Assembly (NCBI GenBank): GCA_021778805.1
Contig: JAJYBV010000002.1
Location: 18,526 to 82,525, forward strand
DNA from: Chloroflexota bacterium
GTDB taxonomy: Bacteria > Chloroflexota > Ktedonobacteria > Ktedonobacterales > JACDGC01
Length of the DNA: 64,000 bases
Reading direction: 5' to 3'
The position numbers were made by a program, and so were the translations under genes. This document shows positions 20,661-43,330 of this stretch, piece by piece (positions within the stretch are counted from its first letter, which is position 1; the number at the start of each line of letters is the position of its first letter). The notes beneath the pieces were generated by a model that saw only the letters and a program-made list of their open reading frames with translations, searched no databases and was not told where the DNA came from.

Positions 20661-21587
20661 ATGGCAATTCAACCATATGCAGTTGTTTTCGATCGTGTAT
20701 CGCGATCTTATGGCAATGTTCAGGCGCTGCGAGATGTTTCATTTACTATCAGCCCAGGCGAAACCATTGCATTACTTGGCCCTAACGGAGCCGGAAAAAC
20801 AACGGCAATATCAATTTTACTGGGCTTGCGTCCTCCCACATCCGGCTCAGCAGCCATATTTGGTGAAAGTCCGCGTAAATTTACCGGCAGAGAACGCATA
20901 GGAGCAATGCTTCAGGAATCCGGTGTACCTTCCACACTTACAGTCACTGAATTGATTACTTGGTTTAGTAAGATGTACAGCAATCCCAAACCATTAGGCG
21001 AAGTTCTTGAAGTGGCAGATCTTAGCAGCAAAGCCAATGCCCGTTCAGCTAATTTATCGGGCGGTGAGCGGCAACGACTGTATTTTGCGTTATCTTTAGT
21101 TGGCAATCCTGATCTGCTTTTCCTCGATGAGCCTACCAATGGCCTGGATGTTGATGCGCGCAGACGCTTTTGGCAATATATATCCGGACTTATTCAGCAG
21201 AAAAAAACCATCGTTGTTACAACTCATTATCTTGAAGAAGCAGACGCCATTGCGCAGCGCATCATCATGATTAATCATGGCAACATCATCGCTCAGGGCA
21301 ATTCACAGCAGATAAAATCGCTGGTCAGCGGCAAAAAAGTCCGCTTTCGAAGCAATTTGATTACAGAATCTAGTGTTATGGATCTGCCATCAGTGCGCGC
21401 TGTCAGCAAAATCAATAATCTTTATGAGGTAACTTCTGATATCCCTGAGGAAACCGTTAAAATGTTGTTAAATACAATTTCTGATGTCAGTGATTTAGAG
21501 GTGAGCAGCATGGGTCTTGAAGAGGCTTTCATCGTATTAACAACATCCTCTGATGCGCAATTGCAGCAAAAAACATTGCATTCATAA
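20661..21587 (+). CDS. ABC transporter ATP-binding protein
   Basis: 308 aa. AGGAGG RBS. Walker A GPNGAGKTT, signature LSGGERQRL, Walker B LLFLDEPTNGLD. Confidence 0.9.
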   Translation: MAIQPYAVVFDRVSRSYGNVQALRDVSFTISPGETIALLGPNGAGKTTAISILLGLRPPTSGSAAIFGESPRKFTGRERIGAMLQESGVPSTLTVTELITWFSKMYSNPKPLGEVLEVADLSSKANARSANLSGGERQRLYFALSLVGNPDLLFLDEPTNGLDVDARRRFWQYISGLIQQKKTIVVTTHYLEEADAIAQRIIMINHGNIIAQGNSQQIKSLVSGKKVRFRSNLITESSVMDLPSVRAVSKINNLYEVTSDIPEETVKMLLNTISDVSDLEVSSMGLEEAFIVLTTSSDAQLQQKTLHS

Positions 21588-21603
21588 ATAGGGAGTTTTC
21601 AAT

Positions 21604-22404
21604 ATGACAACAGTAGAACCAACAACTACATCGTCAATTGCCAGTAACCAAGTCTCGGTGTTTCTCTATACAATTTATTGTGAATTAATGAAGCTCATAC
21701 GCATTCCAGCTTATGTCATTCCGGTAATCTTCTTTCCAACATTATTTTTTGCCATGTTTGGTCTGCCCAACATCAGTAATACTATTCAAGGAGCATCGGC
21801 AGGTGAATATATTTTGGCGTCGTATTCCTGTTATGGATTAATGTCGGTTGGATTTTTCTCATTTGGTGTTTCAATAGCCAGTGAGCGTGGATTAGGATGG
21901 AATAAGCTTTTGCGAGTAACACCTATGAATCCTGTTATTTATTTTTTGGCAAAAATTATTGTTGCGCTTATTGTAGGCGTTATAACAATTGCTATTCTCT
22001 TCATTTTTGGTGTTTTAACAGGCAATTTAGAATCCAAAATCGGCACATTGCTCATTATCGGATCATTTGATCTTGCAGGAATGCTGCCATTTATTGCATT
22101 TGGACTTCTGCTGGGCTATTCTACAGGACCAAATTCAGCGGCCGGTATTGCCAATCTTATCTTTTTGCCGCTATCCTTTGCGTCTGGTCTCTTCGTTCCT
22201 ATTACATATCTGCCCAGTGTTATTCAAAAAATCGCTATATATTTGCCAGCTTATCATGTTGCGCAATTAGGATGGAATTATTTGAATGCCGGAGATGGAA
22301 AATCTTATCTTTACCATCTCCTCTGGATTGCCGGATATACGATCGTTTTTGCGTTCCTGGCAGTTATAGCTTACATGAGGGATGAAAATAAAAATTATGG
22401 CTAG
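21604..22404 (+). CDS. ABC-2-type transporter permease
   Basis: 266 aa with six predicted TM helices. It starts 17 nt after the ATPase gene. Confidence 0.8.
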   Translation: MTTVEPTTTSSIASNQVSVFLYTIYCELMKLIRIPAYVIPVIFFPTLFFAMFGLPNISNTIQGASAGEYILASYSCYGLMSVGFFSFGVSIASERGLGWNKLLRVTPMNPVIYFLAKIIVALIVGVITIAILFIFGVLTGNLESKIGTLLIIGSFDLAGMLPFIAFGLLLGYSTGPNSAAGIANLIFLPLSFASGLFVPITYLPSVIQKIAIYLPAYHVAQLGWNYLNAGDGKSYLYHLLWIAGYTIVFAFLAVIAYMRDENKNYG

Positions 22405-22437
22405 CTATTTGTTGTAAAAACCGAAATAGCGCCTCAT

Positions 22438-22878
22438 CAAATTGATGAACTTTAACAATTAAAGAGGGATAAGATATACCAGCATAACCAGGGATACGTA
22501 AGGGGCGGATGCCCCTTGCGAGGGGATTGGGGTGTCCCCAAAATATTTTTATTTTAAAATTTCCCCAAGGAAATATTGGTAGCCGGGCAGCAAGGGCGAC
22601 CGCAAGGGTCGCCCCTACCGGATTGCATGGCCTCATGTGTGACCGCGCGGCGTATGCTCTAAAACAAATGATATGTGGCAGCGCTTGTGCTACGGCGCGG
22701 TGTAGGTAGCAAGGTGTCCCCGAAACGAACACCACACGATGAATCGTGTGGCTTGTTTCCCCACCTCCACCCATGTGTACCGTGCGGTGTTTGTTCAAAA
22801 ACAGGCACTATGGGGCACTCAATGTACTCTGCTCTGTTGGTCTTCATCCTGATTAAAATATTAAAGTTCATCAATTTG
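22438..22878 (+). mobile_element. Complete 441-bp non-coding MITE-like element with 18-bp perfect terminal inverted repeats (modules L-S-M-R)
   Basis: CAAATTGATGAACTTTAA at 22438-22455 is the exact reverse complement of TTAAAGTTCATCAATTTG at 22861-22878. The interior shares modules with the copies at 272, 17882, 44585, 46262 and 63968. ORFs through it differ between copies. Confidence 0.8.
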
Positions 22879-23106: not shown

Positions 23107-25638
23107 GTGCCTAACAATAATTTTTCACAGAAACTTCCACTGCACGAAAGCGTAACCAGTGCTTTGCAAGAAGCGCGGCAATATGCTATCAAATATCATC
23201 ACGCCGCAGTAGAATCAGAGCATTTGCTGCTGGGCATTACCGCAACCCAAAATCCATTGATATCAGCAGCGCTGCAATCGGTAAAAACATCCACACGCAA
23301 AGTGCGGAGCGCAGTTTTGTTTGTGATTACTCATGATTCCTGCACAGTTGAACCGCACATGGGTAATGAAATTGATCAAATATTAGATCGCGCAAATTCT
23401 GAAGCGATAGAGATGATGTCGCGAGAAATTAAAGTTGAACATGTATTTTTAGGGATGCTGCAAGAAGAGGGTACAATTGCGTATGCTATTCTGCACGAAC
23501 TGCACATTACTTACGACGGCATATTGCCGGAATTAACCAAATTAAGCAAAATGAACACATCAGCAATTGTCACGTTGAAAGAATCTGCAAACCGCTTTCA
23601 GTTAACCCCAACCTTAAATATGGTTAGCAGAGACCTCTCCGCCGAAGCGCAATCCGGCAAACTAGAGCCGCTTATTGGCAGAGAATATGAACTGGAACGG
23701 GTAATGCAAACTTTAACCCGCAGATCAAAAAATAATCCCGTGCTCATCGGTGAGGCCGGTGTTGGCAAAACAGCCATTGCCGAAGGACTGGCCCAGCGCA
23801 TTGCTGATGGAAACGCGCCGCCGGAATTACTGCATCAGCGCGTTGTATCGCTGGATACGGGACTGCTGACCATCGGCACCAAATTTCGCGGCGATTTTGA
23901 GGAACGATTAAAAAGCCTTGTTGCGGAAATTATCAAAGTACATAATTTAATCATCGTAGTAGATGAACTGCATACCCTTATTGGCTCCGGCGTAGCGGAA
24001 GGCTCGGTAGACGCAGCAAATTTACTGAAACCAATACTTGCCCGCGGAGAGTTTCGCTGCTTTGGAGCAACTACGCTGGATGACTACCGGAAAACAATCG
24101 AAAAAGACCCCGCTTTAGAACGCCGATTTCAACCTATTTTTATCCGGCCAAGCACTCCCGAAGAAACTAAATCGATTCTCTTTGGTCTGCGCCCGCGTTA
24201 CGAAGCTTTCCACCATGTCGCAATCTCTGACGAGGCTATTGAAGCTGCGGTAAAATTGGCAGATCGCTATGTGCATGTGCGACAATTTCCCGATAAAGCT
24301 ATCGATTTAATCGATGAAGCCGCCGCGCGGTCTCGTGTTCAGCGATCTGTTATTCCCGCGGAAGCGCTGGCGCTATCTGATTCTTTGGATTTAGTGCGCA
24401 GTGAAAAAAATTCAGCAATCGAAAATGGAGAATTTGCTCTAGCCACTGCGCTTTGGAAAAAAGAAAAGGCAATTCGCCAGCAAATTTATGCGGCAGATTC
24501 TGAATGGCGCACACAACGCGCCGGAAACAACTTTGCAGAACTAAAAGCAACCGATGTTGCAGAAATTGTATCTACCCGAACTGGGGTCCCGGCAATTGCC
24601 GCAACAGAGCAAGAAGCTGAACGGCTTCTGCGCTTAGAGGAATTGCTGCATACACATATTGTCGGACAGCAAAAAGCTGTTACCGCAACCGCGCAAGCAA
24701 TCCGCCGGGCGCGCGCCGATATTCGCGATAGGCGCCGTCCCATTGGATCTTTCATCTTTGCCGGCCCAACTGGGGTTGGGAAAACTGCCCTTGCGCGCGC
24801 GCTGGCAAAAGCATATTTTAACGATGAACAGGCAATTATCACCATTGATATGTCGGAATTTACTGAATCGCACTATGCCGCACGATTGGTCGGCTCACCA
24901 CCGGGATACGTGGGATACGATCAGGCTGGGCAGCTGACGGAAGCAGTAAAAAGGCGGCCATATACGATTGTTTTGCTTGATGAAATTGAAAAAGCTCATC
25001 CGCGGATTTATGATTTATTGCTGCAAATTTTAGAGGATGGCTGTTTAAGTGACGCCAAGGGCCGGCAAACAGATTTCAGCAACACGATTATCATTCTGAC
25101 AACAAATATCGGCGCACAGTTCAAAGCATTTTCCGGCGGATTTATTGAACCGGAGGAAAACCGAACCCGCAACGGCAAAGAAACCGCCGCGCAAAAAAGA
25201 CTAAAACGCGATTTGGCGCAAACATTTAAACCGGAATTTTTGAACCGTATTGATTCAATTATCGTGTTCGATTCGCTTACTCGGCAGGATATGCGCCAAT
25301 TGTGCGATATTGCCTTGCAGCCGCTGATACAGCGCATGCGCGATCGGCTGTATGAACTGCAGATAGACTCCGCCGCGCGCGAAGAGCTTGCCCGGCAAGG
25401 ATATAACAGTGAATATGGCGCGCGCCCATTGCTGCGGCTGATTCAAAGCAAAGTTGAAGATGTATTGGCAGAGAAAATTTTGCGCAATGAATTGCAGCCC
25501 GGTGGTGGTATTTCGATGAGCGCCGCAGATGGCAAATTTATCTTCACGGTATATCCGGAGCCTTTGCCGGCGCCCGCGCTGCAAATTACCGCGGCAGCGG
25601 ATTCGCCGCATGCGGATTTGCGGAAAGAATTGCAATAA
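23107..25638 (+). CDS. clpC: ATP-dependent Clp protease ATP-binding subunit (ClpC-like, two AAA+ modules)
   Basis: 843 aa. GTG start with GGAGG RBS. Clp_N repeats. Walker A motifs GEAGVGKTA and [11 protein letters not shown]. Also LDEIEKAHP and ARPLLRLIQ. Confidence 0.9.
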
Positions 25639-26137
25639 CGGTTTCTGCTGCGGCGTCGGATTCAGTATCGCCATCCCCTAGAAATTCTTGCGGTAGCGCG
25701 CGCATTTTAGCAATGCAGCGATGTCGCAGTAACGGCGCCGTTGTTTGTGAATCGGCAGCCGCAGCAGCAGGAGCAATGCCGGCAGCCCAGCCCTGCCGGC
25801 GAACATCCCGAACAGGTTGTTGCGCCGGAGCAGAATTTTCTAAGCACGACACTTCAAATCCGCGTGCGCGCATCCATATTTTCAGCTGACCCACTGTAGG
25901 AATCCACAGCGTATCAGCTTTGGCCACACGCGCCGGCGGCCAATGTTTTGCAATATCTGTTAAGGTTACCCATCCAACCTCATCATCAGCGTCTGTAATC
26001 AGCGCTAATCCTGCTGTGTCTAAACCAAGATATGATGCGCCAATCGGCGCTGCCCAGTCTCCCGGCTGTGCTTGCCAAACAATACCGGCGGTTTTCAGCC
26101 GGCGCGCCATAACTATGCTTACCAAATCATCTTGCAT
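25586..26137 (-). CDS. hypothetical protein
   Basis: The ORF runs 25586..26194. The likely start is MQDDLVSIVMARRLK at 26137, with AGGAT 7 nt upstream. The 3' end overlaps convergent clpC by 53 nt. Confidence 0.4.
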   Translation of the reverse strand: MQDDLVSIVMARRLKTAGIVWQAQPGDWAAPIGASYLGLDTAGLALITDADDEVGWVTLTDIAKHWPPARVAKADTLWIPTVGQLKIWMRARGFEVSCLENSAPAQQPVRDVRRQGWAAGIAPAAAAADSQTTAPLLRHRCIAKMRALPQEFLGDGDTESDAAAETVIAILSANPHAANPLPR

Positions 26138-26223
26138 ATGCAATATCCTAACATGATTCGGAATCCGTCGTACTACGTTTTTCCGAAAGCTCAATCACCG
26201 TTCAGTTTGGAGCATAACATAAT

Positions 26224-29200
26224 TTATCCCTGCCCCGCTTGAATATTCGCGCCTAAAAAAGCATCACTGCGCTCAGTGGGAACCCATACAACCAACGGAT
26301 GGATAGTAATAATCTCAAATCGCTGCGCTGCAAAAAATTGTTTTGTTTCATCCGTCATACCCTTATTCCCATGTTCGGAGGATTTAAATATAATAAACGG
26401 CCGGGCATGCTGCAATAACTGTGTCAAAAAGGCTAAACCACCGGGTATCTGCGATTCTTGCGACAGCATAACTACCGCAACCGAATGAATATCCTTCAGC
26501 ATAAATGCAAGTTGAAACAGATTGCTGATATTGCCAATTTTATACGCTTCGTGATTATGTTCTGCTTGCTTCGGCTGCTGTTCATAAAAGAATTCACCAA
26601 ATTCCAAACCGGGATAGCCATCGAAAACAATCATCTTGTCCTGCATTTGCCAAGATTGAATATTCGCGCGAATAACGGCTGCATTATATATATGCGGCTC
26701 AAATAATACCGCTTTATCAATATGCGTGGTTTGTGTCAGCATCTGCATGGCATAGGCGCCAGATTCCGCATCAACATCTATCACAATGCTATGTTCGGGC
26801 AACGCTTGCGCAATTTCGTTCAAAGCCGGCGTATCTTGGTAAAATAAGCGTACTCGATCGGCCATAGCTTTATTTACTAAAATCTGCGTTTCATTTTGCA
26901 GCAAAACCTCAGTTATTTCTGGTTGGGCAAGAATAACAGCTCTGCCCCAGAAATCTTTATAAATGTGGATATGGCGCGCCGAATTCAGTTGGAGCGAACC
27001 AATATGCAAATCTTGCTGTAGTTGATCAATAAAAATAAAGGTCGTAGTTTTGCTAAGGCTTGCTTGAACAGATTTAAATAACATGGTTAAATATGGCGTA
27101 TCATCAATATTGAAGTGCAGCCACACCGAAGGAGATTCATCTTCCACAGTACTTTCTATAATCTGTAACTCGTGTGTATCGTTCATCGAAATACTGTATG
27201 GTGTTGCAGCATCAATATTTAACGCCGCAAAAATTTCTGCCGCAATCAGTTTGCGATGCGCCGCGTTTTGCAAATAATCCGACAAATTTTTCACTGGATT
27301 GCCAATTTCTCGCGGATCCGCAAGCTGTCCGGCTGCATCACTGTTTTGCGGCAAAGTTTGGTAAATGCGCCCGACGATTTCAATTATCTTATCTTGCATA
27401 TATTCTATACCATGCAAAGAAGCCTTAACCGAATAAATATGATCACTGTATTCACTGTCTACTTGGTTTAGTTTTTCTTTAATTGCGTCTATATGGCTGC
27501 CATATTCCTGAAGCATGGTATGTAATGTGTTCTTAAGCGCAAAAATATGATCACCATATTCAGTATCCACTTGGTTTAGTTTTTCTTTAATTGCAAAAAC
27601 ATGATCAGATAATTCGTTCACGCGATTTTGCAGCGCCTGTATTTCCTGTAACTTGAGTTGGAGCTGCCGCTGCGATTGACTGACGCTGTTGGCAGATTCC
27701 GAAGATTTTTGGGTCGATTCACTATACATAGGCTGGTTGCCATACTGATATAGCATTTGTTCTTGCAAACTGCTTAATTTTGCTTCCAATTCTGCAACGC
27801 GGCTGCTCATTTGGCGGTATTCATTCAGTGATATAACATTTATTGCGCCTTGCTGTTCGTTTAGCCGACCCAAAGAAAACACACGCACGGCAATGCGGAG
27901 CAGTGTGCCGATGCCTTTTTGTTTCTTAAATGGTACCCGCTGATCGCGTGTGCGGGTCCAATCCCATTTATGCAGCAAATCTTGATGAAAGTTCACAAAC
28001 TCTGATGTATCCGCCGTTGCTTTAACGGGTGAAGGCAAACCGGGTTTCGCGTCAATTGCATTTAACCGGTTGATAATAACTGTAGCGGCCGCGTGTGCGC
28101 TATATTGCCTGCGGATATCTTTTGCCGCAATCGCGCCTTTTTGCCGAGCTTCCTCCGGATGCTCAAAAACATGGAGCATAAGCTGCGCAGCGTGATCGAT
28201 GTTTGGTTCTGCCCAAACAAATCCCGGCTGATATACCTTTGCGCAATCCGGATGATAGTGATGCTCTTCCAACGTAATCGTGCGAATTGTAAAATCTACC
28301 GGATATGAGTTTTCCGCAGTCATATAATCGGCGTTGCCGGAATAACCGGTTGCGATAACCGGTTTGCCAAGGTACATTGCCTCTGCCATACCTAACCCAA
28401 AGCCTTCAGCGCGATGCAGGGAAACATAGGCGTCGCAGCAAGCAAGTAAATCATTCATCTGTCTTCGTGTCAGATATGATTCAATGAGCATTCCACCAAC
28501 ATTTTCCACCGCATTTTTCAAGGCTTTTGCAAGCATTGGATAATTCTCTAAATTCTGCGATTTTATAACCAGCAGTGGTTTTTTGCCGGGATAATTCCAA
28601 AACGCCTTTTGAAAAGCTTGCGCCACTCCCAATGGATTTTTGCGTGATTCACAGGAATTTGCGTCGAAGGTAAAGAGAAAAACAAATGCCTGTGAAGGCA
28701 AATGAAATTGCGATCTATCAGGAACATCCGATGTTTCAATTGAGATTGGCATAGGAATAACCGAAACAGGCGCTTGCGTATATGCTTCAATATTTTGTTT
28801 GGTAAACGCGGAATTAACCCATATTTCACTGACTCGTTGAATATGGTCCTTAAAAATATCGGCAACCTTTTCCAATTCCCACGCCCAAAACGCAATAGTA
28901 TATTTGTTATCGGTCAGCGTTGTAAGTTCTTCGTCGTTAATCCAGGGCATATCATTAATATTATTTAAAAATAAATTAATTGGATATGTGGATGCGCGCG
29001 GCAGACCAACAAACCGAGCCGGCAGCGGATTTTTAGGATCGGCTCCATAATAAATTTTTTCCCGGTAAGAAACCGGAATATTTTTCCCTAAAAGCACATC
29101 AAACAAACGCGCCGCAGCTGTTACCAATCCGGTTTCGGAGCGTAAATCGCCAATAACATTCAAACCGGAAACATGGGTAAAGGGATTCCAATAACTCAGA

Positions 29201-30426
29201 TCTTTCTTAATATCAATCTGCTCCATCGCCAAGGTATCTTGTACAATATGAATTAATTTCTGCCCCATAAGATCCCACGAGGCATTTTGCTCGATAAATT
29301 CACGAGCTTGTTCACCCGATGACTTTACCAGCGCCGGATTATCTGAGGCTTTTAACAAATATTGGGTTAGTTGTTGTGTTTCATGCGGTGTATTTGCTTC
29401 TATGCGCCAGCAATATGTGTTATCATATTCTCTAAATTGTGGAAGATCAGAGGTAATAACCACCTTACCGGCGCCAAACGCCCGTAGCATTACTCCTGAT
29501 GTTTCCCCCGATGTGGGCCAGCGCAAATTAACCACCACATCTACACATTGCACATACTCCAAAAAGGAGTTCATATCTAAATTAGGAATAGAGATGACAA
29601 CATTGGTTAACCCCAACGTTTTGATTTGTTTTTTAATTTTCTGTACATATTCTTGCTCTTCTTCAAATCCAACGATCAATAAGCGCGCATTGGGATTTTT
29701 TTTATAAAGCGCATGAAAAGCATTAAGAATAACATGTATGCGTTTTGTATGGTTTACCCGGCCGAAAGCGCCAATCAACAAGTGATTTTCGGAAAAATTG
29801 AATTTTCTGCGCAGCTGCGCCGCAGTTTTTGCAGCAAACACATCTGCGCCATGAAAAATATTATATAGCTGCGTATTTGGGTACGCTTTAGCATAAAATT
29901 CCTTGCTCCATTGGCTATGCACCACTACCGATAAACTGCTGTCAAAAATTCGCTTAGTAAGGTGATAGGTTAACCTATCGGGGTGTTTATGCTGCTGAAG
30001 CAATTTCTGCAGATTTTGTGCGGCTTGTTCACCATAGTTATAGCGAACTTCGTTTAATAATTTTGCAAGATCATTCTGCCAAAGATAACTGTGGAAATCA
30101 TAAAGCGACATATCATGCTGCAATACAATACCCGGATGGCTTAATGCGCGATCATAAATATATTTATGGAAAAAAGGATTATTTCCCAAATTATAAATAT
30201 TGACATCAAAAGGCGCAAAATCGTTGCGTTCATCATAATAATCTTCGCCCCACACTAACGCGCCGGGATGGGGAAACGCAGGGGGAAGAGCAGCGTTATC
30301 AGTAAATATTTCTAAATCGCAGTATTTGGCCAAAGCGGCAATCAAATCTGTGCTATAATCAGATATTCCGCTTTCCAACGGTGGAAATGGTGACCAATAT
30401 GCAACGCGATAGCTAGTATCTTTCAT
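26224..30426 (-). CDS. giant multidomain protein: GT4 glycosyltransferase, second GT4, coiled coil, then C-terminal FkbM-like methyltransferase
   Basis: About 1400 aa. The likely start is MKDTSYRVAYW at 30426, with GAGGA upstream. The second GT domain has SLHRAEGFGLGMAEAMYLGKPVIATGYSGN. Heptad-rich segment around aa 850-1010. The C-terminus has VIDVDAESGAYAMQM..VLFEP (tentatively FkbM-like). Confidence 0.85.
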   Translation of the reverse strand: MKDTSYRVAYWSPFPPLESGISDYSTDLIAALAKYCDLEIFTDNAALPPAFPHPGALVWGEDYYDERNDFAPFDVNIYNLGNNPFFHKYIYDRALSHPGIVLQHDMSLYDFHSYLWQNDLAKLLNEVRYNYGEQAAQNLQKLLQQHKHPDRLTYHLTKRIFDSSLSVVVHSQWSKEFYAKAYPNTQLYNIFHGADVFAAKTAAQLRRKFNFSENHLLIGAFGRVNHTKRIHVILNAFHALYKKNPNARLLIVGFEEEQEYVQKIKKQIKTLGLTNVVISIPNLDMNSFLEYVQCVDVVVNLRWPTSGETSGVMLRAFGAGKVVITSDLPQFREYDNTYCWRIEANTPHETQQLTQYLLKASDNPALVKSSGEQAREFIEQNASWDLMGQKLIHIVQDTLAMEQIDIKKDLSYWNPFTHVSGLNVIGDLRSETGLVTAAARLFDVLLGKNIPVSYREKIYYGADPKNPLPARFVGLPRASTYPINLFLNNINDMPWINDEELTTLTDNKYTIAFWAWELEKVADIFKDHIQRVSEIWVNSAFTKQNIEAYTQAPVSVIPMPISIETSDVPDRSQFHLPSQAFVFLFTFDANSCESRKNPLGVAQAFQKAFWNYPGKKPLLVIKSQNLENYPMLAKALKNAVENVGGMLIESYLTRRQMNDLLACCDAYVSLHRAEGFGLGMAEAMYLGKPVIATGYSGNADYMTAENSYPVDFTIRTITLEEHHYHPDCAKVYQPGFVWAEPNIDHAAQLMLHVFEHPEEARQKGAIAAKDIRRQYSAHAAATVIINRLNAIDAKPGLPSPVKATADTSEFVNFHQDLLHKWDWTRTRDQRVPFKKQKGIGTLLRIAVRVFSLGRLNEQQGAINVISLNEYRQMSSRVAELEAKLSSLQEQMLYQYGNQPMYSESTQKSSESANSVSQSQRQLQLKLQEIQALQNRVNELSDHVFAIKEKLNQVDTEYGDHIFALKNTLHTMLQEYGSHIDAIKEKLNQVDSEYSDHIYSVKASLHGIEYMQDKIIEIVGRIYQTLPQNSDAAGQLADPREIGNPVKNLSDYLQNAAHRKLIAAEIFAALNIDAATPYSISMNDTHELQIIESTVEDESPSVWLHFNIDDTPYLTMLFKSVQASLSKTTTFIFIDQLQQDLHIGSLQLNSARHIHIYKDFWGRAVILAQPEITEVLLQNETQILVNKAMADRVRLFYQDTPALNEIAQALPEHSIVIDVDAESGAYAMQMLTQTTHIDKAVLFEPHIYNAAVIRANIQSWQMQDKMIVFDGYPGLEFGEFFYEQQPKQAEHNHEAYKIGNISNLFQLAFMLKDIHSVAVVMLSQESQIPGGLAFLTQLLQHARPFIIFKSSEHGNKGMTDETKQFFAAQRFEIITIHPLVVWVPTERSDAFLGANIQAGQG
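27425..27640 (-). repeat. In-frame 108-bp (36-aa) tandem duplication inside the coiled-coil segment of the giant glycosyltransferase
   Basis: ACTTGGTTTAGTTTTTCTTTAATTGC occurs at 27461-27486 and 27569-27594 and encodes AIKEKLNQV. At protein level there are four 18-aa units of the form DHxFAxKxxLxxxxxEYG. Confidence 0.85.
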
Positions 30427-30448
30427 AATGCGCATCCTCGGTTAATAT

Positions 30449-31903
30449 TTAATCGTCAAACTGATGAATTTGTATAAAATGAGATAATATTTCTTGCATT
30501 CCTGCGATTTCCTGATAGGTATATCTATCAACATCTCGTTGCCGCACATCAATTTTTCTGGAAAGCAACAGCCTTACAATCCCTTTAATAAGTCTTCCGG
30601 CAATCGGCAGTTTACTGAAAGCAAATGTATCTTGCCGCCATTGCAGATATTCCAGCTGCTCAATAACATCTTTTTGTTTTGTTTGAATTTGTTCTAACGA
30701 CAGCAGAGCATTTTTAATAATTGCTTCTTTATTACGGTAAATTTGCTTATTAAATTCGCCTGCGCCAACAAGTTGCTGAATAACTTGCAGCCGCTCGCTG
30801 ATAACGTTGCTGATTGCTTCTAATGATAGTTTTTTCCGGATATCAGCTTGGGCGTTTTGGGCTTTTTTCACGCGATCGTTGGCGTCATAAAAAACCCGTT
30901 TCATTAATTCAACAGCATGATCGACGCTAGGTTCGGCCCATAAACTGCCCGGCTCATAGATATTGAGCAAATGCTGCTCAGATTCAAAATCGCTGCTTTT
31001 AATCGTTTTTAATGAATAATCGGCAATATAACTATTTGCGTTATTCATAAAATCCATATTGCCCGAATACCCGGTGCCAATAACCGGTTTACCTAAATAC
31101 ATAGCTTCGGCCAAGCCAAGGCCAAACCCTTCCGCGCGATGCAAGGAAACGTAGCAATCAATACTATTCAGCAAGCCAAGCATTTCCTGACGAGACAACG
31201 TATCTTCAATTAAAATGCCTTTCAGGCGGCGCATTTCTAAAATTAATTTTTGCCGTGTTTCGGGGTGATGGTTCAGTTGACTCACTTTCAGCGCTAATAT
31301 TGGCCGTGTTGGCTCATGCAAAGGAAACGCTTCTTCATATGCTCGAATTACTGCCCAAGGATTTTTCCGAGTTACACTTGAAGCGGCGTCAAAAGAAAAG
31401 AAAAAGATAAAAGCGTTTTCCGGCAGCTGAAAATATTTTCGGTTATAGGCTGTATTAACTTGAAACTCTATCACATGCGGCACAACTGTAATTGGTGTTG
31501 CTGTTACTGTTGCAAACGCCGCTTTAGCAAAAGCGCTTGGAGTCCAAATTTCATCAAAATATTCAAAATTTGTATGATATTGCTCGGGAACGGCAGGCAA
31601 TTCCCACACCCAATTTGCAATAGCGTATTTGTTTTTTGCGGCAATTTTTAATTTTTCCGAAGCTTGAATCTGCGAAAATTCGTGCATATTCAATCCCGAC
31701 AAATTAATAGGGTATAGCAGCCCCTGTTCTAAGGAGTGCATTTCCTTTTCTTTAATTCTTGGCGCATAGGGATGATGTACAGGATAATAGCTTAAGGGGA
31801 TGTTGCTATACTTCATTGCATCGACCATACCCCGCAGCGCTATGCCCAAACCTGCATTTAAATATACATCGCCAATAATAGTAACCCCGGTAATTTTATC
31901 CAT
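30449..31903 (-). CDS. GT4-family glycosyltransferase with C-terminal coiled coil
   Basis: 484 aa. SLHRAEGFGLGLAEAMYLGKPVIGTGYSGN and KYAIANWVWELP are close paralogs of the central domain of the neighbouring giant protein. Confidence 0.8.
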   Translation of the reverse strand: MDKITGVTIIGDVYLNAGLGIALRGMVDAMKYSNIPLSYYPVHHPYAPRIKEKEMHSLEQGLLYPINLSGLNMHEFSQIQASEKLKIAAKNKYAIANWVWELPAVPEQYHTNFEYFDEIWTPSAFAKAAFATVTATPITVVPHVIEFQVNTAYNRKYFQLPENAFIFFFSFDAASSVTRKNPWAVIRAYEEAFPLHEPTRPILALKVSQLNHHPETRQKLILEMRRLKGILIEDTLSRQEMLGLLNSIDCYVSLHRAEGFGLGLAEAMYLGKPVIGTGYSGNMDFMNNANSYIADYSLKTIKSSDFESEQHLLNIYEPGSLWAEPSVDHAVELMKRVFYDANDRVKKAQNAQADIRKKLSLEAISNVISERLQVIQQLVGAGEFNKQIYRNKEAIIKNALLSLEQIQTKQKDVIEQLEYLQWRQDTFAFSKLPIAGRLIKGIVRLLLSRKIDVRQRDVDRYTYQEIAGMQEILSHFIQIHQFDD

Positions 31904-31921
31904 TAATGTATCTCTGTATCC

Positions 31922-33712
31922 TCAAAATTCTTCTTTAATGGTGACAGTAAATTGATAAAGCATGTGGCTGTATGTTTGGAATGGTATCTTTTTCCTGACA
32001 ATATCAAAAGTTAATTGATATTGTCCCGCGGCTTCCGGCGCGGCAACTGCAATTTGTTTTTTAATTTTTTTGCCGGCAGGTATCTGCTCCATAAGCATCG
32101 TGTTTTGCTCATCTGCAAATATGGTATGTTCGCTTTCTGCTGGCAGATCTTCCGGCAGCCAAGCATAGCTTACATAATAATTTTCAACAGCGTTTTTGGA
32201 ATAAACCCACGTTTGTGAACCGATATTTTTCAATTCAATTTCGCAATTATAATTTTTTCCGGCAGCCATTTCCAAAGGTATTTTGCTATTACTAAAATCT
32301 ACGGCAAAAGCCGGACGGTTCATTTTCAGGGCTTTTTTGCCGAATTCGGCAATCTGCGCCGGCGCATTTCGCATTCCCAAAAGCATTGACAGTCGTTTTA
32401 ACGGTTTCCATAGCGCTAAAATTGAAGCATAATAAAAAGGCTTGCCAGCAAATTGGCCGGATTGCTTCAATGCAATATTGCCGACAAAATCGGGAGCGCG
32501 CTGTGGCTGCTGTGCCCATTGCGTTAAAGAATGCAACGACTGTTCATTTGCATATATCGCTTGAAACAGCTGTTTTGCCTGCCGTCCCATTTCCTGAGTT
32601 GCTGCCGAATTAGAGATCAGCAATTCAATTGCATCCGCCAATGATTGCGCATTTTCCGGCAAATATGCCACGCCGGCGCCTGCCGCAATTATTGATTGCC
32701 CAAGCTCCGTAAGCGAAGTGACAATACACGGCAAACCGGCTTTCAGCCAATCTAAAACCCGATTTCTGCTGCCAAGCAGCGCTTCATATGTCATAAGGTC
32801 AGTATTAACCGCAGCGTCGCTTTCCAGTAAATAATTCGGTAATTCATCTGATGGAACCCAATTAAGCAGATGATAGCGTCCGGAAAATTCCGACTGTTTT
32901 GTCAAATATGCAAATCTCTGAAAAGTTAGTTCGTTATATCCCTTAATTCCACCGCCGGTAGCCACAAATACAATATTTTTGCGCCGCCGCATAACCGTTT
33001 CTAACGCTTCGAAAAGCGTATCCACATCGGTCCACGTATTAAAACCGCCGGTATTCAGCAGCACAAAATCACCGTCTTGCGCAAGGAGTCCGCGAATACT
33101 TTTCCCTTTCGGCGTTAAAGCCGTATTTTCAAGGGTTGCAGGAATAACCTGAACAAATTCATATCCTATTGTGGCTTTATTTAATCTTCCGGCAGCCCCA
33201 AGCTCGCCAATAACCGCCCATTTTTGTCGATCAGAAACACAAGAAAAGCAATCTGCGCGGCGGATAACAGTGTTTTCCGTTTTCCAGCATTGCGCAATAA
33301 TCGCATCATCTCCCAACACTGCCGCCTGTGTTTGAGCTTCGGCCATTAAACTGCCATTTAAATCTGCCCAAAAAGGCAAATTGCCGATATGCCGAACAGC
33401 AATTGCCGCGGAATGTGTAGAAGTTGCAATAACACATTGACATTCAGAAATATATTTAGAAACGATCTTGCCCAAAGAATAGTTCCAAATATCCAATGAA
33501 ACAGTAATATAGGTTAGGTTATTTACCAAAGTTACAGCAGTATCTGGCTCGTTTTCCGGATAGGTAGCCTGACTGCGTTCGCAAATTGCAATAACTTTAT
33601 GATTCTGTTTCAGTAATACATCAATAAATCGCCATGTGCGTAAACTATGAGCATTCATACGCATATTTTCAAAGGGAAGCGGCGCTACACCAAATAGTAT
33701 TATTGTAGACAT
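31922..33712 (-). CDS. glycosyltransferase-like protein with a C-terminal beta-sandwich-like domain
   Basis: 596 aa. GT-B-like N-terminal part (ILFGVAPLPFEN.., TGGFNTW). The C-terminal ~110 aa are beta-rich (NYNCEIELKNIGSQTW..AGQYQLTFDIV). Confidence 0.65.
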   Translation of the reverse strand: MSTIILFGVAPLPFENMRMNAHSLRTWRFIDVLLKQNHKVIAICERSQATYPENEPDTAVTLVNNLTYITVSLDIWNYSLGKIVSKYISECQCVIATSTHSAAIAVRHIGNLPFWADLNGSLMAEAQTQAAVLGDDAIIAQCWKTENTVIRRADCFSCVSDRQKWAVIGELGAAGRLNKATIGYEFVQVIPATLENTALTPKGKSIRGLLAQDGDFVLLNTGGFNTWTDVDTLFEALETVMRRRKNIVFVATGGGIKGYNELTFQRFAYLTKQSEFSGRYHLLNWVPSDELPNYLLESDAAVNTDLMTYEALLGSRNRVLDWLKAGLPCIVTSLTELGQSIIAAGAGVAYLPENAQSLADAIELLISNSAATQEMGRQAKQLFQAIYANEQSLHSLTQWAQQPQRAPDFVGNIALKQSGQFAGKPFYYASILALWKPLKRLSMLLGMRNAPAQIAEFGKKALKMNRPAFAVDFSNSKIPLEMAAGKNYNCEIELKNIGSQTWVYSKNAVENYYVSYAWLPEDLPAESEHTIFADEQNTMLMEQIPAGKKIKKQIAVAAPEAAGQYQLTFDIVRKKIPFQTYSHMLYQFTVTIKEEF

Positions 33713-35904: not shown

Positions 35905-36666
35905 TTAATGTGTAATTTCCGCCAGCATTGCATTGATGGTTTGCAGTGATTGCGCATTGAGCTGAAAAGAACGCTCTGAAACAATCATATTTGCCATTTC
36001 TTTGCTCAGGTCTACCCGCGGAGCCTCCAATGTGTTGGGTATTAGCCCGCCAAACCCGTTTTGGAATGGTGTGCCGGTAATCGGCTTGCCGGAATCTACC
36101 GTTGCCGCATATGTTGTAGACCCTATGGCGCTTAACCCTTGGGGATTTATAAATCGCGCCAGCTGTAATTGGCCAATATTTTGCTGCTGGCCGCTTACCT
36201 GCGCTGTAATCTCTCCGGCGCTGGTAACAGTCACTTCCGAAGCGCCGGAAGGCAGCGTAATAGGCGGCTGAACCAATGCGCCGTTAATGTTTAAATTGCC
36301 GGCGCCATCAAATCTCAGCGCGCCTAAGCGCGTATATCCCATTGTTCCATTAGGCTGCAGCGTTTGGAAATATCCATCACCCCCGATGGTTACATCGAGT
36401 GGATTACCGGTTGCCACCGGAGATCCGGGAATTTGCGCATGCGAAGTGCTTTGCAATTGTGAGCCGACACCAATTGCGCTGGAGTTGGCATACGTTGAAT
36501 TGACTAAATTTCGCGGATCAACTCCTTGGTAAATTAAATCGGTGACAATAGGATCGGATGCGTCGAAACCAAACGTATCGACATTGGCAATATTATTGGA
36601 TGTAATATTTAACACTTGCTGTGATGATTCCATTCCGCTTACCGAGCTGGAATAAATTGGCAGCAT
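35905..36666 (-). CDS. flgG: flagellar basal-body rod protein, FlgG-like
   Basis: 253 aa. N-terminal rod motif ITSNNIANVDTFGF. Central GDGYFQ..GTMGYTRLGALRFD. C-terminal MIVSERSFQLNAQSLQT. Confidence 0.8.
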   Translation of the reverse strand: MLPIYSSSVSGMESSQQVLNITSNNIANVDTFGFDASDPIVTDLIYQGVDPRNLVNSTYANSSAIGVGSQLQSTSHAQIPGSPVATGNPLDVTIGGDGYFQTLQPNGTMGYTRLGALRFDGAGNLNINGALVQPPITLPSGASEVTVTSAGEITAQVSGQQQNIGQLQLARFINPQGLSAIGSTTYAATVDSGKPITGTPFQNGFGGLIPNTLEAPRVDLSKEMANMIVSERSFQLNAQSLQTINAMLAEITH

Positions 36667-36689
36667 ATTTAAAACACTCCTTTGTTTTA

Positions 36690-37412
36690 TTATTTCGCTA
36701 TCGAATCAGTCGCTTCCGTCAGCATTTGATAGGCATATTGCTGCATTTGCGCAGACGCCGAAAATGCCCGCTGCGAGGAGATCATAGACCCTAAAACAGC
36801 GGACAAATTCACATTCGATTGTTCCAGCATACTTTGCCGGATAAATGTTTGCGGAGCCGCGGTTACCGCGCCAACAGGCGTAAATAGATCTGCGCCGCTT
36901 TTTGCCCAGCCTGCGGCGTTGAATACGCCTATTTGGCCAATGGTCAATGTTCCCACCTGAACTACTCCGTTAACACCAACGGTAACAGCTTTTCCCTGAA
37001 GATCTGGGAACTGAATGGGGGCTTTGTTAGCGCCCAGCACAACATTGCCATCGGCGTTCACCAACTGCCCGTTTGCGGCAATATGGAAAGCGCCATTGCG
37101 GGTATACATAGTTCCCGTCGGTGTTTGCAGCGCAAAAAATCCCGGTCCTTGCAGCGCCATATCAAACGGGTTAGTAGTTTGCTGCAAGGCGCCCTGAGTT
37201 AAATCTAAACTGGTTACTGTGCTTAACACACCGGTGCCGCGAACCAATCCGCCCATGCCATAAGATAAAGGGTTAGCTGAAGCCATCAGCATAGAATCAA
37301 AATCGCCCTTGTATCCAATAGTTGCCTGATTCGATACATCATTCGATAACGCGCTGATATCCGTCATTTCGCTGGACATACCAGCAACAGCTGTATAAAA
37401 GCCGCGAATCAT
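36690..37412 (-). CDS. flgF: flagellar basal-body rod protein, FlgF/FlgG family
   Basis: 240 aa. MIRGFYTAVAGM.., GPGFFALQ..GTMYTRNGAFHI, LEQSNVNL..MISSQRAF. Confidence 0.75.
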   Translation of the reverse strand: MIRGFYTAVAGMSSEMTDISALSNDVSNQATIGYKGDFDSMLMASANPLSYGMGGLVRGTGVLSTVTSLDLTQGALQQTTNPFDMALQGPGFFALQTPTGTMYTRNGAFHIAANGQLVNADGNVVLGANKAPIQFPDLQGKAVTVGVNGVVQVGTLTIGQIGVFNAAGWAKSGADLFTPVGAVTAAPQTFIRQSMLEQSNVNLSAVLGSMISSQRAFSASAQMQQYAYQMLTEATDSIAK

Positions 37413-37439
37413 AAAAAGAATCCTTTCTTTTTGGTTGTA

Positions 37440-38171
37440 TTATCGCAAATCGGTTTTATCCGGTATACGAACGTTTTTTATAATTTTCAAAGAGCGTCGA
37501 AGAGTATACCCAAGCGCCGCCAGCGAAATCCCCAGCAGGCCATATTCCAGCAATGTTATTTGCCAAGATGCGCTTTTTGTGGCAGCAGGCGCAGTAGCGG
37601 ATGCGCTATATGCGCTGGCTGGCTCAAACGGCGGGTGCTGCGCGTTTGGTCCGGTATCCGGCAGATGTTTTATCTGCTGGATAATACTGCTGTTTCCCTG
37701 AAAATATCCCGCAATAGAGCGCAGATTGCTTGGGGCAGAACTTGCAGACGCGGCGGTATTTGGCTGCACAGTAATTAAGATCATCGAATATCCAGCCGCT
37801 AAATGGCCGGGAAACGATTCATCAATAATAGCCGAGCCATCGCTGGCGGTATTAAATCTGCCAATCAGCATATCAGTTCCGGTTTGGGGATTAATAAACC
37901 AAGCGGCATACATTTGGTTTGTTAACGGCGGAAGCTTTTGCACGCTTATGCGTACTTCAAATGCAATCGGCCAAACAAGCGCATTGCCGGTAGCAATAGT
38001 TGGTCCCCAATTAGAAAACCCCGATATATAGGTTAATGGCACAGATATCGGCTGCTCTTCTGCAAACGCCGGGGCCGGCGATGCCATTGCAAAGAAAAGC
38101 GCAGCCATTGCAAATAGTACCGCAGCGCAAATCCGTTGCCCTGATGTATTGAATATTTTTCGCAAATACAT
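37440..38171 (-). CDS. secreted protein with an RskA-C-terminal-like domain and a C-terminal LPDTG motif, TM helix and basic tail
   Basis: 243 aa. Signal peptide. MYAAWFINPQTGTDMLIGRF resembles the extracellular domain of anti-sigma-K RskA. HLPDTG is followed about 35 aa later by a hydrophobic helix and RRSLK. Confidence 0.55.
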   Translation of the reverse strand: MYLRKIFNTSGQRICAAVLFAMAALFFAMASPAPAFAEEQPISVPLTYISGFSNWGPTIATGNALVWPIAFEVRISVQKLPPLTNQMYAAWFINPQTGTDMLIGRFNTASDGSAIIDESFPGHLAAGYSMILITVQPNTAASASSAPSNLRSIAGYFQGNSSIIQQIKHLPDTGPNAQHPPFEPASAYSASATAPAATKSASWQITLLEYGLLGISLAALGYTLRRSLKIIKNVRIPDKTDLR

Positions 38172-38190
38172 AGCGCATCCTCCGATTTCA

Positions 38191-39042
38191 CTACGCAGAT
38201 TGTTTTATAACAGCGCGCCGTACCGGTTTCCTTGGTAAAGAAGCGCGGTTTGGCGGCGGTTCCATAAAATGGCTGAGATAGGATCGCATGCGCAGAATAG
38301 CCTGTGTATGCAGCTGACACACTCTGGATTCTGAAACATCTATGACAAGTGATATTTCTTTCATCGTCAATTCTTCAATATAATACAGCTGCAAAAGCAG
38401 TCGTTCACGCGGTGGCAGCTTATCTAGCGCTGCAATCAGCACAGATCGCATTTCATGGTGTATGGCTTCATTATGTGGATCGGCCGACGAGTGATCTTCC
38501 AATAATTCGCCTAATGTAGATGTATCGTCATCAGAACGTGAAGACATTAATGGAGCATCTAGTGATAAAATTGCAGCGTTTGCGTCTATCAGCATTTGCC
38601 GATATCGTTCAATGGAAACCCCACATTCCGCTGCAATTTCATCTTCATTTGCTGGTCGGCCCAGCCGCTGTTCCAATTCGGCCAGCGTGCGTTCCAGCGC
38701 GCGCGACCGCGCCATTGTCGAGCGGCTCATCCAATTCAGCGTGCGCAATTGATCAATTACAGCGCCGCGGATTCGTTTCGTGGCGTAAGCCTCGAACTTT
38801 ACCCCGCGTGATGGCTCAAAGCGATCAAGAGCATTAATAAGTCCTATCAGTCCATAGCTCACAAGATCGTCCTGATCAAGAGTTGTTGTTGTAGGGATAT
38901 TCAACCTGGCAACAACAAAAGACACCATAGGCGAATATTTTTCGATTAAACGTGCGCGAATTTTTTCATCACGAGTTTCAATAAATGTTGCCCACAATAT
39001 CTCGTCCTCTGTTTGAACAACATCAGTTGAGCTGTGTTCCAT
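38191..39042 (-). CDS. fliA: flagellar sigma factor FliA (sigma-28)
   Basis: 283 aa. Region 2 (YSPMVSFVVARL, LVSYGLIGLINALDRFEP) and region 4.2 HTH (TMKEISLVIDVSESRVCQLHTQAILRMR). It sits inside the flagellar operon. Confidence 0.85.
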   Translation of the reverse strand: MEHSSTDVVQTEDEILWATFIETRDEKIRARLIEKYSPMVSFVVARLNIPTTTTLDQDDLVSYGLIGLINALDRFEPSRGVKFEAYATKRIRGAVIDQLRTLNWMSRSTMARSRALERTLAELEQRLGRPANEDEIAAECGVSIERYRQMLIDANAAILSLDAPLMSSRSDDDTSTLGELLEDHSSADPHNEAIHHEMRSVLIAALDKLPPRERLLLQLYYIEELTMKEISLVIDVSESRVCQLHTQAILRMRSYLSHFMEPPPNRASLPRKPVRRAVIKQSA

Positions 39043-43324: not shown

Positions 43325-43330
43325 AGCCCG

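Follow-up and report, generated by a model that had tools for sequence, protein, structure and literature searches.

The window, a stretch of 64,000 nucleotides from a Chloroflexota bacterium, carries an operon of glycosyltransferase genes on its minus strand, including a fusion gene for a protein with two GT4 modules, a helical spacer and an FkbM-like C-terminal domain (Table 1). The original prediction of a ~1400-aa protein is borne out: the ORF encodes 1403 residues, or 1400 from the second ATG. This internal start (Met4), at the earlier end coordinate 30426, is also the one used in the 1400-aa database copy. The upstream gene GT484 is separated from the fusion gene by 13 bp, and its product aligns with residues 422-876 of the fusion protein (34% identity, E 3e-85). 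The last 150 residues of GT596 give a weak match to N_BRCA1_IG (E 0.0025, below the cut-off), and this beta-rich domain is possibly Ig-like. No Pfam or NCBIfam match was found for the downstream ORF. A sister Ktedonobacteria (Chloroflexota) MAG has a syntenic ortholog of the fusion protein, 1410-aa-long and 80% identical, without frame breaks and with the same domain order and neighbours. Identity is 89% for GT484, 80% for GT596 and 78% for the ORF at the place of the downstream ORF.

Table 1. Features of the locus. Nucleotide positions refer to the window; the second column gives residues of the fusion protein.
Feature	Residues	Position	Strand	Basis or remark
GT596, first gene of the operon		31922..33712	minus	GT4; Pfam Glycos_transf_1 at 208-381
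GT484, upstream operon partner		30449..31903	minus	stand-alone module 2 and junction helix; Pfam Glycos_transf_1
Two-GT4/helical/FkbM-like fusion gene		26224..30435	minus	1403 aa
GT4 module 1	1-405	29221..30435	minus	Pfam Glycos_transf_1 and Glyco_trans_1_4
GT4 module 2	418-795	28051..29184	minus	second Glycos_transf_1 stretch and PF20706
Conserved junction motif	817-866	27838..27987	minus	invariant columns and homologs
Helical spacer	867-1027	27355..27837	minus	periodicity, Fourier, SMC/Rad50 cross-matches
Four tandem 18-residue repeats	945-1016	27388..27603	minus	TRF and repeat listing
Variable linker and conserved pre-domain	1028-1100 and 1101-1190	26866..27354	minus	
Predicted FkbM-derived class I methyltransferase-fold domain	1191-1403	26227..26865	minus	remote homology and AF2
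Conserved downstream ORF		25586..26137	minus	183 aa from Met20

Both GT4-type domains that had been proposed are called with Pfam. Glycos_transf_1 matches the protein in two stretches (8.7e-26, best 208-379), and Glyco_trans_1_4 covers 220-350 of module 1. This module is 89% identical to that of the sister ortholog, with a dN/dS of 0.08. Its EX7E motif reads as non-canonical (E311...R318), a point against the mechanism favoured below. Module 2, in which PF20706 covers 616-784, belongs to a widespread 'NINDM / RKNP / HRAEGFG' subtype, has a canonical EX7E motif (E677-E685) and shows a dN/dS of 0.10. A search of genome contigs returned 357 stretches related to it; its paralogs are GT484 and a gene on another contig of the source genome (C83).

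The junction motif, with the pattern W-x-R-T-R-D ... PF-K-x-K-G-I-G-T-L-L-R-I ... G-R-x-N-E-Q-Q-x-I-N, takes in many of the alignment columns where P0001, P0004 and P0122 do not vary. It likewise follows the GT module of GT484 and is found in actinobacterial GT4-CC-FkbM proteins and in P0018, P0022 and P0027, being conserved across Chloroflexota and Actinobacteria in proteins ending in FkbM or Methyltransf_11/23. A basic amphipathic helix inside the motif (836-858, hydrophobic moment 0.59 for 840-857) is a candidate anchor to the membrane or to a partner.

The helical spacer consists of a short helix up to residue 898, a poorly conserved S/Q-rich linker (899-916) and a 111-residue amphipathic helix (917-1027). 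The latter is free of proline and has a coherent hydrophobic periodicity of 3.4-3.7 residues (z = 10.4, a value reached by 0 of 1000 shuffles); the Fourier peaks of the spacer lie at 3.5-3.6 residues. Weak coiled-coil cross-matches to SMC, Rad50 and SpiroCoCo extend over 869-1038. The segment 917-1027 is a candidate coiled coil, which may associate into oligomers. A coiled coil of ~160 residues had been predicted; its amphipathic helix is confirmed, but it is not one uninterrupted coil, as 899-916 is predicted to be unstructured and no periodicity signal was seen in 843-898. AF2 predicts helices for the spacer with a pLDDT of only 45, and this low-confidence model breaks at the repeat junctions; the spacer may form a helical bundle in place of a long rod.

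Within the long helix, the repeat unit is H-I-x-A-I-K-x-K-L-x-Q-V-D-x-E-Y-x-D, with hydrophobic residues spaced 3-4-3-4-4 (7+11). TRF detects it as a period of 54 nt in 3.2 copies at 27435-27607, equivalent to 4 x 18 aa. The sister ortholog retains all four units, and the repeat part has a dN/dS of 0.09. P0004 and P0122 lack this segment and have spacers ~110 residues shorter; across the family, spacer length ranges from 269 to 527 residues.

For the linker and pre-domain (AF2 pLDDT <50, dN/dS 0.16), no family match was found at E<=1, and the pre-domain aligns to the part of P0004 and P0122 that precedes their FkbM domain. The C-terminal domain itself has no Pfam match even at E<=10 and none in NCBIfam, and phmmer found nothing in the PDB and 0 matches among 1.84 billion representative proteins. 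No FkbM match was found in the source genome. However, P0004, 36% identical over residues 10-904, bears a Pfam FkbM domain (6e-19) where the tail of the fusion protein aligns; BLASTP of the tail against that region gives an E of 2e-4, and hhalign an E of 8e-4 at a probability of 24%. The AF2 model reaches a pLDDT of 70-87 for 1193-1393 and yields 375 PDB matches in Foldseek at E<=1e-3, the best 50 of the 375 being nearly all SAM methyltransferases, although the alignment behind the model included true FkbM sequences and may bias the predicted fold. Position and predicted structure together indicate an FkbM-derived domain with a class I SAM methyltransferase fold. The fold of the predicted FkbM-like methyltransferase is thus upheld by remote homology and modelling, with Foldseek pointing to a SAM-binding fold, but its sequence is not recognized by Pfam, NCBIfam or PDB searches and its SAM loop (motif I) is degenerate, DxGAHxG having become DVDAESG (residues 1220-1226, window 26758-26778).

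The ABC-2-type exporter pair at 20661-22404, to which the original prediction had pointed, is present but DrrA/DrrB-like; the sister genome lacks it at the corresponding site, and it is considered unrelated. A Wzm/Wzt pair with a cap-recognising carbohydrate-binding module (CBM) had also been envisaged. On contig C83, one operon holds a phosphoglycosyltransferase (PGT), Wzm, a TagH/Wzt-like ATPase and the paralog of module 2. As this operon lies on another contig, it is connected to the fusion gene by paralogy only, which counts against the mechanism favoured below, and the functional link between the two loci is a putative one. The Wzt of the source genome (284 aa) has no CBM, and a Wzt_C CBM was found in neither this genome nor the sister, so that the canonical step of reading the cap is lacking here. 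Elsewhere, the relative L065 adjoins Wzm and a Wzt bearing the Wzt_C module, and of 80 loci that hold a module-2 homolog, about 30 encode a Wzt-like ATPase no more than 10 kb away.

The fusion protein belongs to a widespread, uncharacterised family of fixed domain order, in which GT4 module(s) and a terminal methyltransferase are joined by a basic amphipathic helix and, after it, a helical spacer of variable length. Homologs with this order carry a bona fide methyltransferase, which is FkbM in P0004, P0122 and P0124-P0128 and Methyltransf_11/23 in P0018, P0022 and P0027. The proposed fusion of polymerase, coiled coil and methyltransferase is therefore supported for the family, but less firmly for this protein with its degenerate loop. 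The explanation we favour, by a modest margin over even odds, is a multi-module glycan-assembly enzyme of ruler-type architecture in a lipid-linked Wzm/Wzt (ABC-transporter) pathway. It would be a soluble protein, probably attached to the membrane from the inner side. The polyprenyl carrier would be primed by a WbaP-type phosphoglycosyltransferase whose gene lies on another contig, and the chain would be extended by GT596, GT484, the two GT4 modules of the fusion protein and the third module-2 paralog. Helix 836-858 could tether the glycosyltransferase part to the membrane or within the complex, while the 111-residue helix (~16 nm if continuous) would set the C-terminal domain at a distance, as the rulers of WbdD, WbbB and O7 ORF6 do. 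This distal domain may then act on, or bind, the non-reducing end of a chain that has grown to sufficient length, and the polymer would be exported by the Wzm/Wzt pair of the second locus. Ruler function and capping are putative; the degenerate SAM loop in this genus is the main uncertainty.

That the giant ORF is an artefact of assembly or annotation joining separate genes is barely conceivable. What could speak for it is that the source MAG is fragmented into 157 contigs and that the protein stands as a singleton in the database. Nevertheless, the independently assembled sister MAG contains the unbroken ortholog with matching domains and neighbours, which all but rules out the mis-assembly considered originally; every segment of the gene is under purifying selection, and P0004 and P0122 share the architecture. 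Another reading places the operon outside exported-polysaccharide synthesis, in the glycosylation of a protein such as flagellin or in making an intracellular methylated polysaccharide. It would fit the position of the operon, which in each of the two genomes of the genus has PepF with flgF/flgG-fliA-flhA on one side and clpC on the other, the lack of an exporter in the locus, and the contexts of P0004, P0122 and P0128, without an ABC transporter within 10 kb. We regard it as improbable, however: PepF, on the opposite strand, stands between the operon and the flagellar genes, the flagellin genes lie on other contigs, module-2 homologs often adjoin Wzm/Wzt in other phyla, and the C83 operon of the source genome unites PGT, Wzm and Wzt with a paralog of module 2.

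A closer rival, although still unlikely, keeps the architecture and takes the tail for a pseudo-methyltransferase that has lost SAM-dependent catalysis and whose remaining role is structural, in oligomerisation or in binding the glycan end. In that case, chain length would be governed by how polymerase and exporter are balanced, the way it is in cap-independent systems, or by steric capture of the chain end. Only 15 of 41 FkbM-conserved columns are kept (26 lost), the K-x-D-x-x-G region is gone, residue 1222 is Asp where Gly is invariant in seven bona fide FkbM fusions (G1222D), and the position of H1224 holds E here and G in the sister. The absence of sequence matches in Pfam, NCBIfam and the PDB and of a CBM-bearing Wzt in either genome agrees with this view. 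The tail changes at about three times the pace of the GT modules (dN/dS 0.28 versus 0.08-0.10), yet this value remains at 0.28 and the domain is therefore kept for some reason. On the other hand, D1220, A1223, G1226, E1246-P1247, N1258 and R1345-P1346 are retained, with E1246 at the acidic position beyond strand 2, which in class I methyltransferases usually binds the ribose. The sister loop reads G-A-G, and some active methyltransferases lack the first Gly. Methyl capping by the fusion protein is uncertain because of the degenerate loop and the faster evolution, and we give continued methylation by the domain slightly less than an even chance.

Functional precedents for the favoured glycan-assembly enzyme are available (PMC11231755, PMC3482155, PMC2943079). 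Fusing polymerase, ruler and terminator, as put forward in the original prediction, is already known from characterised single chains: WbbB, Klebsiella pneumoniae O7 ORF6 (PMC11231755) and WsaE (PMC2943079). Like the fusion protein, O7 ORF6 is a single chain of ~1400 residues that combines two chain-polymerising GT modules with a coiled coil in the middle and a terminator of methyltransferase type, and a further GT comes from a separate protein (PMC11231755). Its order is opposite (methyltransferase, kinase, CBM-like domain, coiled coil, GT2, GT2, against GT4, GT4, helix, FkbM-like domain), its modules are GT2 instead of GT4, and a kinase accompanies its methyltransferase, in which the glycine loop is intact (PMC11231755), whereas in the fusion protein no kinase was found and the SAM loop is degenerate. 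The O7 locus also carries wzm/wzt (PMC11231755), while the exporter proposed here is on another contig and without a CBM. According to the passages on WbbB (K. pneumoniae O12 / Raoultella terrigena) in PMC11231755, this protein also unites two GT modules, a coiled-coil ruler and a terminator at the coil end distal from the polymerase. The terminator described there is an N-terminal beta-Kdo transferase, not a methyltransferase, and the Wzt bears a CBM.

In E. coli O9a and K. pneumoniae O3, WbdA is a polymerase with tandem GT4 modules, and WbdD a methyltransferase-containing terminator spaced off by a coiled coil; these are two proteins in E. coli, WbdD also having a kinase, instead of one chain (PMC3482155, PMC11231755). 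An amphipathic helix lies at the membrane-proximal end of this system, beside the polymerase (PMC3482155, PMC11231755); in the fusion protein, such a helix separates the GT modules from the coil. The WbdD methyltransferase is outside the FkbM family, and the likeness drawn here is one of shared folds. WsaE, from the S-layer glycan pathway of Geobacillus stearothermophilus, combines a capping O-methyltransferase domain and two chain-building GT domains in one protein of a Wzm/Wzt pathway in a non-proteobacterial organism (PMC2943079). Its methyltransferase is N-terminal instead of C-terminal, no coiled-coil ruler is described for it in PMC2943079, and its gene, unlike the fusion gene, is adjoined by wzm/wzt (PMC2943079). 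True homologs occur in Ktedonobacterales and Actinobacteria, in the form of uncharacterised GT4-coiled-coil-FkbM proteins (P0004, P0122, P0124-P0128) such as the 'FkbM family methyltransferase' of Amycolatopsis rubida. They differ in their canonical DxGAHxG loops, FkbM scores above the Pfam cut-off and spacers 110-210 residues shorter, without 18-residue repeats, but share module 2, the junction motif, the helical spacer and the FkbM-type domain in the same order. The fusion protein, its cap domain possibly inactive, is a reversed-order GT4/FkbM variant of the known design.

The large gene is a single unbroken ORF, and the previously used end coordinate, 30426, corresponds to its second in-frame ATG, which is also the start of the public database copy (1400 aa, a singleton cluster). 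A scan of the genome-contig collection revealed a syntenic ortholog in a sister genome, the MAG Ktedonobacteria bacterium isolate clean5. This ortholog is 1410 aa long, ~80% identical and without frame breaks. Gene order is common to both genomes: flhA, a PilZ gene, fliA, flgF/G and PepF on one flank, a core of GT596, GT484, the large gene and a conserved 183-aa ORF, and clpC, a small GTPase gene and deoC on the other flank. All segments of the gene are under purifying selection, as indicated by the dN/dS values against the sister ortholog. Together, the ortholog, the shared synteny and the selection throughout the gene rule out a mis-assembly of separate genes for practical purposes, in agreement with the original prediction of one giant ORF; on the same evidence, an artefact of any kind is scarcely credible.

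The large gene is the third in a tightly spaced minus-strand operon, preceded by the two glycosyltransferase genes GT596 and GT484. The latter is a stand-alone paralog of the second GT4 module of the large protein, including the junction helix that follows it (34% identity, E 3e-85). The beta-rich C-terminus of GT596 may bind carbohydrate or mediate interactions. The 183-aa ORF downstream has no family match and is convergent with clpC, the two genes overlapping at their ends. A scan for promoters and terminators of this operon had an outcome no better than chance. Two features suggest a lateral acquisition of the operon: its G+C content is 0.40-0.43 (window 26000-32000), against 0.458 genome-wide, and of the 41 genomes of the order searched, only those of this genus have the di-GT4 protein with its tail. 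The host is a Ktedonobacteria (Chloroflexota) MAG with a small genome (3.25 Mb, 93% complete), and the window also carries a block of flagellar genes and a second glycan cluster on the plus strand.

The large protein has no evident transmembrane segment or signal sequence. The predicted presence of two GT4-type domains is borne out by Pfam: Glycos_transf_1 and Glyco_trans_1_4 each match twice, with the best stretch at residues 208-379. The whole-protein score of Glycos_transf_1 is 90.9 bits over two stretches, and PF20706 matches module 2 (residues 616-784) with 29.7 bits, above its cut-off of 26. The generic GT4 families of NCBIfam agree. The EX7E motif is canonical in module 2 (E677-E685) and non-canonical in module 1, and this motif and the HMM scores above cut-off assign the protein to CAZy GT4/Glycos_transf_1. 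The system comprises two polymerising modules in the large protein and two more GT4 genes in the operon.

Module 2 is followed by a strongly conserved junction motif (W-x-R-T-R-D, PF-K-x-K-G-I-G-T-L-L-R-I and G-R-x-N-E-Q-Q-x-I-N). It includes a basic amphipathic helix with a hydrophobic moment of 0.59, which makes it a concrete candidate for anchoring these machines to the membrane or to a partner.

A coiled coil of ~160 aa had been proposed behind this junction. This is broadly right as a helical spacer, but the region is composite. Over residues 869-1038, Pfam gives only weak coiled-coil cross-matches, and NCBIfam gives SMC, Rad50 and SpiroCoCo matches over the same span. A linker within it is S/Q-rich and predicted to be unstructured, with 45% identity between the orthologs and a 7-residue indel. 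It is followed by a periodic helix of 111 residues, free of proline, with a single in-phase hydrophobic seam (period 3.4-3.7) whose spectral power reaches z = 10.4 against 1000 shuffles. The core of this stalk is built by four tandem 18-residue repeats, detected by TRF as a 54-nt period, with a hydrophobic spacing of 3-4-3-4-4 (7+11, or 3.6 residues per turn). All four are kept in both genomes of the genus. Compared with the closest full-architecture homologs, in which the 18-residue repeats are missing, the stalk is ~110 residues longer. The AF2 monomer model of residues 796-1060 consists throughout of helices of low confidence (pLDDT 45), interrupted where the repeats join at Gly-containing positions. 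The periodic helix may form either a ~16-nm rod or a folded bundle.

The C-terminal tail, predicted to be an FkbM-like methyltransferase, is an orphan by its own sequence. Pfam has no match beyond residue 1040, and the tail has none at E<=10 in Pfam and none in NCBIfam. Using phmmer, residues 1040-1403 have no PDB match at E<=10, and the tail has 0 matches, not even to itself, among 1.84 billion representative proteins. A six-frame search of the whole genome found no PF05050 match either. Its connection to FkbM rests on homologs with a matching architecture. The metagenome protein P0004 (1686 aa) is 36% identical to the large protein over residues 10-904, the junction motif included, and its Pfam FkbM domain (6e-19, 69 bits) occupies the very region to which the tail aligns (BLASTP, 20% identity, E 2e-4). 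The placement of the FkbM domain is the same in P0122, from a Ktedonobacterales MAG. In P0004, of all homologs with the full architecture the closest, ~390 extra C-terminal residues (~1300-1686) carry a K/H-I-D-V-Q-G-Y-E motif that resembles FkbM and points to a putative second methyltransferase-like domain.

Aligned by hhalign to eight such fusions, the tail gives an E-value of 8e-4 over 148 columns, with a probability of only 24%. An AF2 model of the tail, derived from a 9-row alignment that included true FkbM domains, has a pLDDT of 70-87 over residues 1193-1393. Foldseek matched this model to 375 PDB entries at E<=1e-3, and nearly all of the 50 best listed are class I SAM-dependent methyltransferases. 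A profile search against the PDB also retrieves methyltransferases, but it is driven by the bona fide FkbM rows and is thus not independent evidence. With these rows in the alignment, AF2 and Foldseek support a class I (Rossmann-like) SAM methyltransferase fold, and the tail is very probably FkbM-derived. The fold part of the prediction, the presence of a SAM-binding fold, therefore stands, whereas no family HMM recognizes the domain and its motif I is eroded. This motif (residues 1220-1226) reads D-V-D-A-E-S-G, and D-V-D-A-G-A-G in the sister, instead of the invariant D-x-G-A-H-x-G; neither genome of the genus matches D-x-G-A-[HN]-x-G. The K-x-D-x-x-G region is lost as well. Among the 41 columns conserved in FkbM fusions, 15 are kept and 26 are lost. 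The kept ones include D1220, G1226, E1246-P1247 (the 'EP' after strand 2), N1258 and R1345-P1346 (the C-terminal 'RP'). The tail may still act as a methyltransferase, with the balance tipping slightly towards inactivity.

The GT4 subtype of module 2 is very widespread: the genome-contig collection contains 357 confirmed stretches of it. A Wzt-like ATPase with 35-50% identity to the one on contig C83 of the host genome is encoded at <=10 kb in ~30 of the best 80 loci, accompanied by Wzm in 20. In a Solirubrobacterales MAG (L065), Wzm and a Wzt that carries a Wzt_C CBM are divergent from and adjoin two module-2 proteins, one of 924 aa and one of 1142 aa in which module 2 is followed by a ~180-residue spacer and Methyltransf_11/23; a 287-aa methyltransferase is also encoded. 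The other members end in FkbM (P0124-P0128, Actinobacteria) or in Methyltransf_11/23 (P0018, P0022, P0027), and all of these alike have the junction motif after the GT module. The distance from GT to methyltransferase motif I is 269-527 residues in family members. The family, found in Chloroflexota and Actinobacteria and with no annotation beyond 'glycosyltransferase' or 'FkbM family methyltransferase', looks like a group of polymerase-spacer-methyl-terminator enzymes of an ABC-transporter-dependent pathway.

No Wzm/Wzt pair is present at the locus of the large gene. A tblastn search of the whole genome with the modules identified a third module-2 paralog, the last gene of a true Wzm/Wzt operon on C83. 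This operon probably supplies the initiation and export steps of the pathway, and its 548-aa membrane protein is a candidate GT-C or ligase. A search for a Wzm/Wzt with a CBM for a methyl cap had been suggested. The transporter was indeed found, but its Wzt is a protein of 284 aa with a ~25-residue tail and no C-terminal module, and Wzt_C (PF14524) has no match in this genome or in the sister, although the control relative L065 has one. The ABC-2 pair 4 kb from the large gene, which had been considered as the exporter, was rejected: it is DrrA/DrrB-like, separated from the GT operon by clpC, and missing from this site in the sister, where clpC and the GTPase gene are direct neighbours. This region looks like an unrelated, lineage-specific insertion.

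Features of the large protein, its window and related loci (window positions unless stated otherwise)
Feature	Location	Strand	Description	dN/dS vs sister
Large gene	26224..30435	minus	1403 aa
GT4-1				0.08
GT4-2				0.10
Junction motif	residues 817-866
S/Q-rich linker	residues 899-916
Periodic helix	residues 917-1027
Repeat helix				0.09
Pre-domain	residues 1101-1190			0.16
Tail	residues 1191-1403			0.28
GT596 C-terminal ~150 aa	31922-32380		beta-rich; sub-threshold NBR1-type Ig-like match, E 0.0025
183-aa ORF	25586-26137	minus	Ala/Arg-rich; 78% conserved in sister; downstream of large gene
ABC-2 pair	20661-22404		DrrA/DrrB-like
DrrAB-like ABC-2 region	20661-22878
Flagellar block	35905-44089		flgF/G, fliA, PilZ protein, flhA, flhB, fliR
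Second glycan cluster	52184-59770	plus	903-aa GT2+GT4 fusion; 595-aa Acyl_transf_3 membrane protein; 930-aa polytopic protein with weak YfhO match
C83 operon	L090 9457-15887	minus	PGT, Wzm, Wzt, 548-aa membrane protein, 507-aa module-2 paralog
C83 PGT			WbaP/WcaJ-type polyprenyl-phosphate glycosylphosphotransferase (TIGR03025, 1e-113)
C83 permease			Wzm-like
C83 ATPase			TagH/Wzt-like (NF010065, 2e-61; galactan Wzt, 5e-57)
C83 548-aa protein			polytopic membrane protein; no family match
P0004 gene	L001 5331-10391
Solirubrobacterales locus	L065 6525-15794

The most likely reading, which we hold with modest confidence, is that the large protein is a member of a reversed GT4-helix-stalk-methyltransferase family and works with the PGT/Wzm/Wzt operon of C83. 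The main rival is an identical machine with a dead head domain; this would fit the lack of a Wzt that reads the cap, and is considered somewhat unlikely. Protein glycosylation or intracellular glycan synthesis is quite improbable. Flagellin glycosylation in particular is raised by the adjoining flgF/G-fliA-flhA genes, and was judged unlikely as the flagellin genes are located on other contigs (C155 and C37) and module-2 homologs are often found near Wzt.

An unlikely, more specific scenario is a decay of the whole cap-and-read logic in this genus: the tail would be a pseudo-enzyme, Wzt would have lost or never had its cap reader, and the stalk and the dead head would still be selected. If so, a coiled-coil 'ruler' could limit or organize chain growth even when no chemical cap is added. 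It might, for instance, bind the chain end, or scaffold the three module-2 paralogs by way of the amphipathic junction motif that they have in common. The combination of a degenerate SAM loop and a CBM-less Wzt in one genome could reveal whether a ruler works without a cap.

To our knowledge, the characterized single-chain terminator-ruler-polymerase enzymes are all from Proteobacteria and carry the terminator N-terminally. The terminator-ruler strategy has an extended coiled coil as its hallmark (PMC11231755). In Klebsiella pneumoniae O12, WbbB is a single chain in which a Kdo transferase, as the terminator, precedes a coiled coil and a pair of GTs. In the 1414-aa ORF6 of serotype O7, a methyltransferase-kinase is joined to a CBM-like domain, followed by a coiled coil and two GT2 modules (PMC11231755). 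WbdD has a methyltransferase-kinase head, a coiled coil and a C-terminal amphipathic helix, and recruits the di-GT4 polymerase WbdA (PMC3482155, PMC11231755), while WsaE of Geobacillus carries a capping O-methyltransferase and two rhamnosyltransferase domains (PMC2943079). As WbbB, O7 ORF6 and WsaE are already single-chain enzymes, the fusion of polymerase and terminator is an established idea; the prediction of such a polypeptide suits the family, but not as a novelty. Compared with WbbB, ORF6, WbdD and WsaE, the large protein runs in the reverse order, beginning with the GTs, pairs GT4 modules with an FkbM-type head, and has a conserved junction motif between GT and coil. Its host belongs to another phylum, its proposed pathway is split over two loci, and in its genome the CBM is missing and the SAM loop is degenerate. 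The large protein documents a reversed family: GT4 modules come first, the methyltransferase comes last, and between them lie a conserved junction motif, basic and amphipathic, and a stalk whose length varies.
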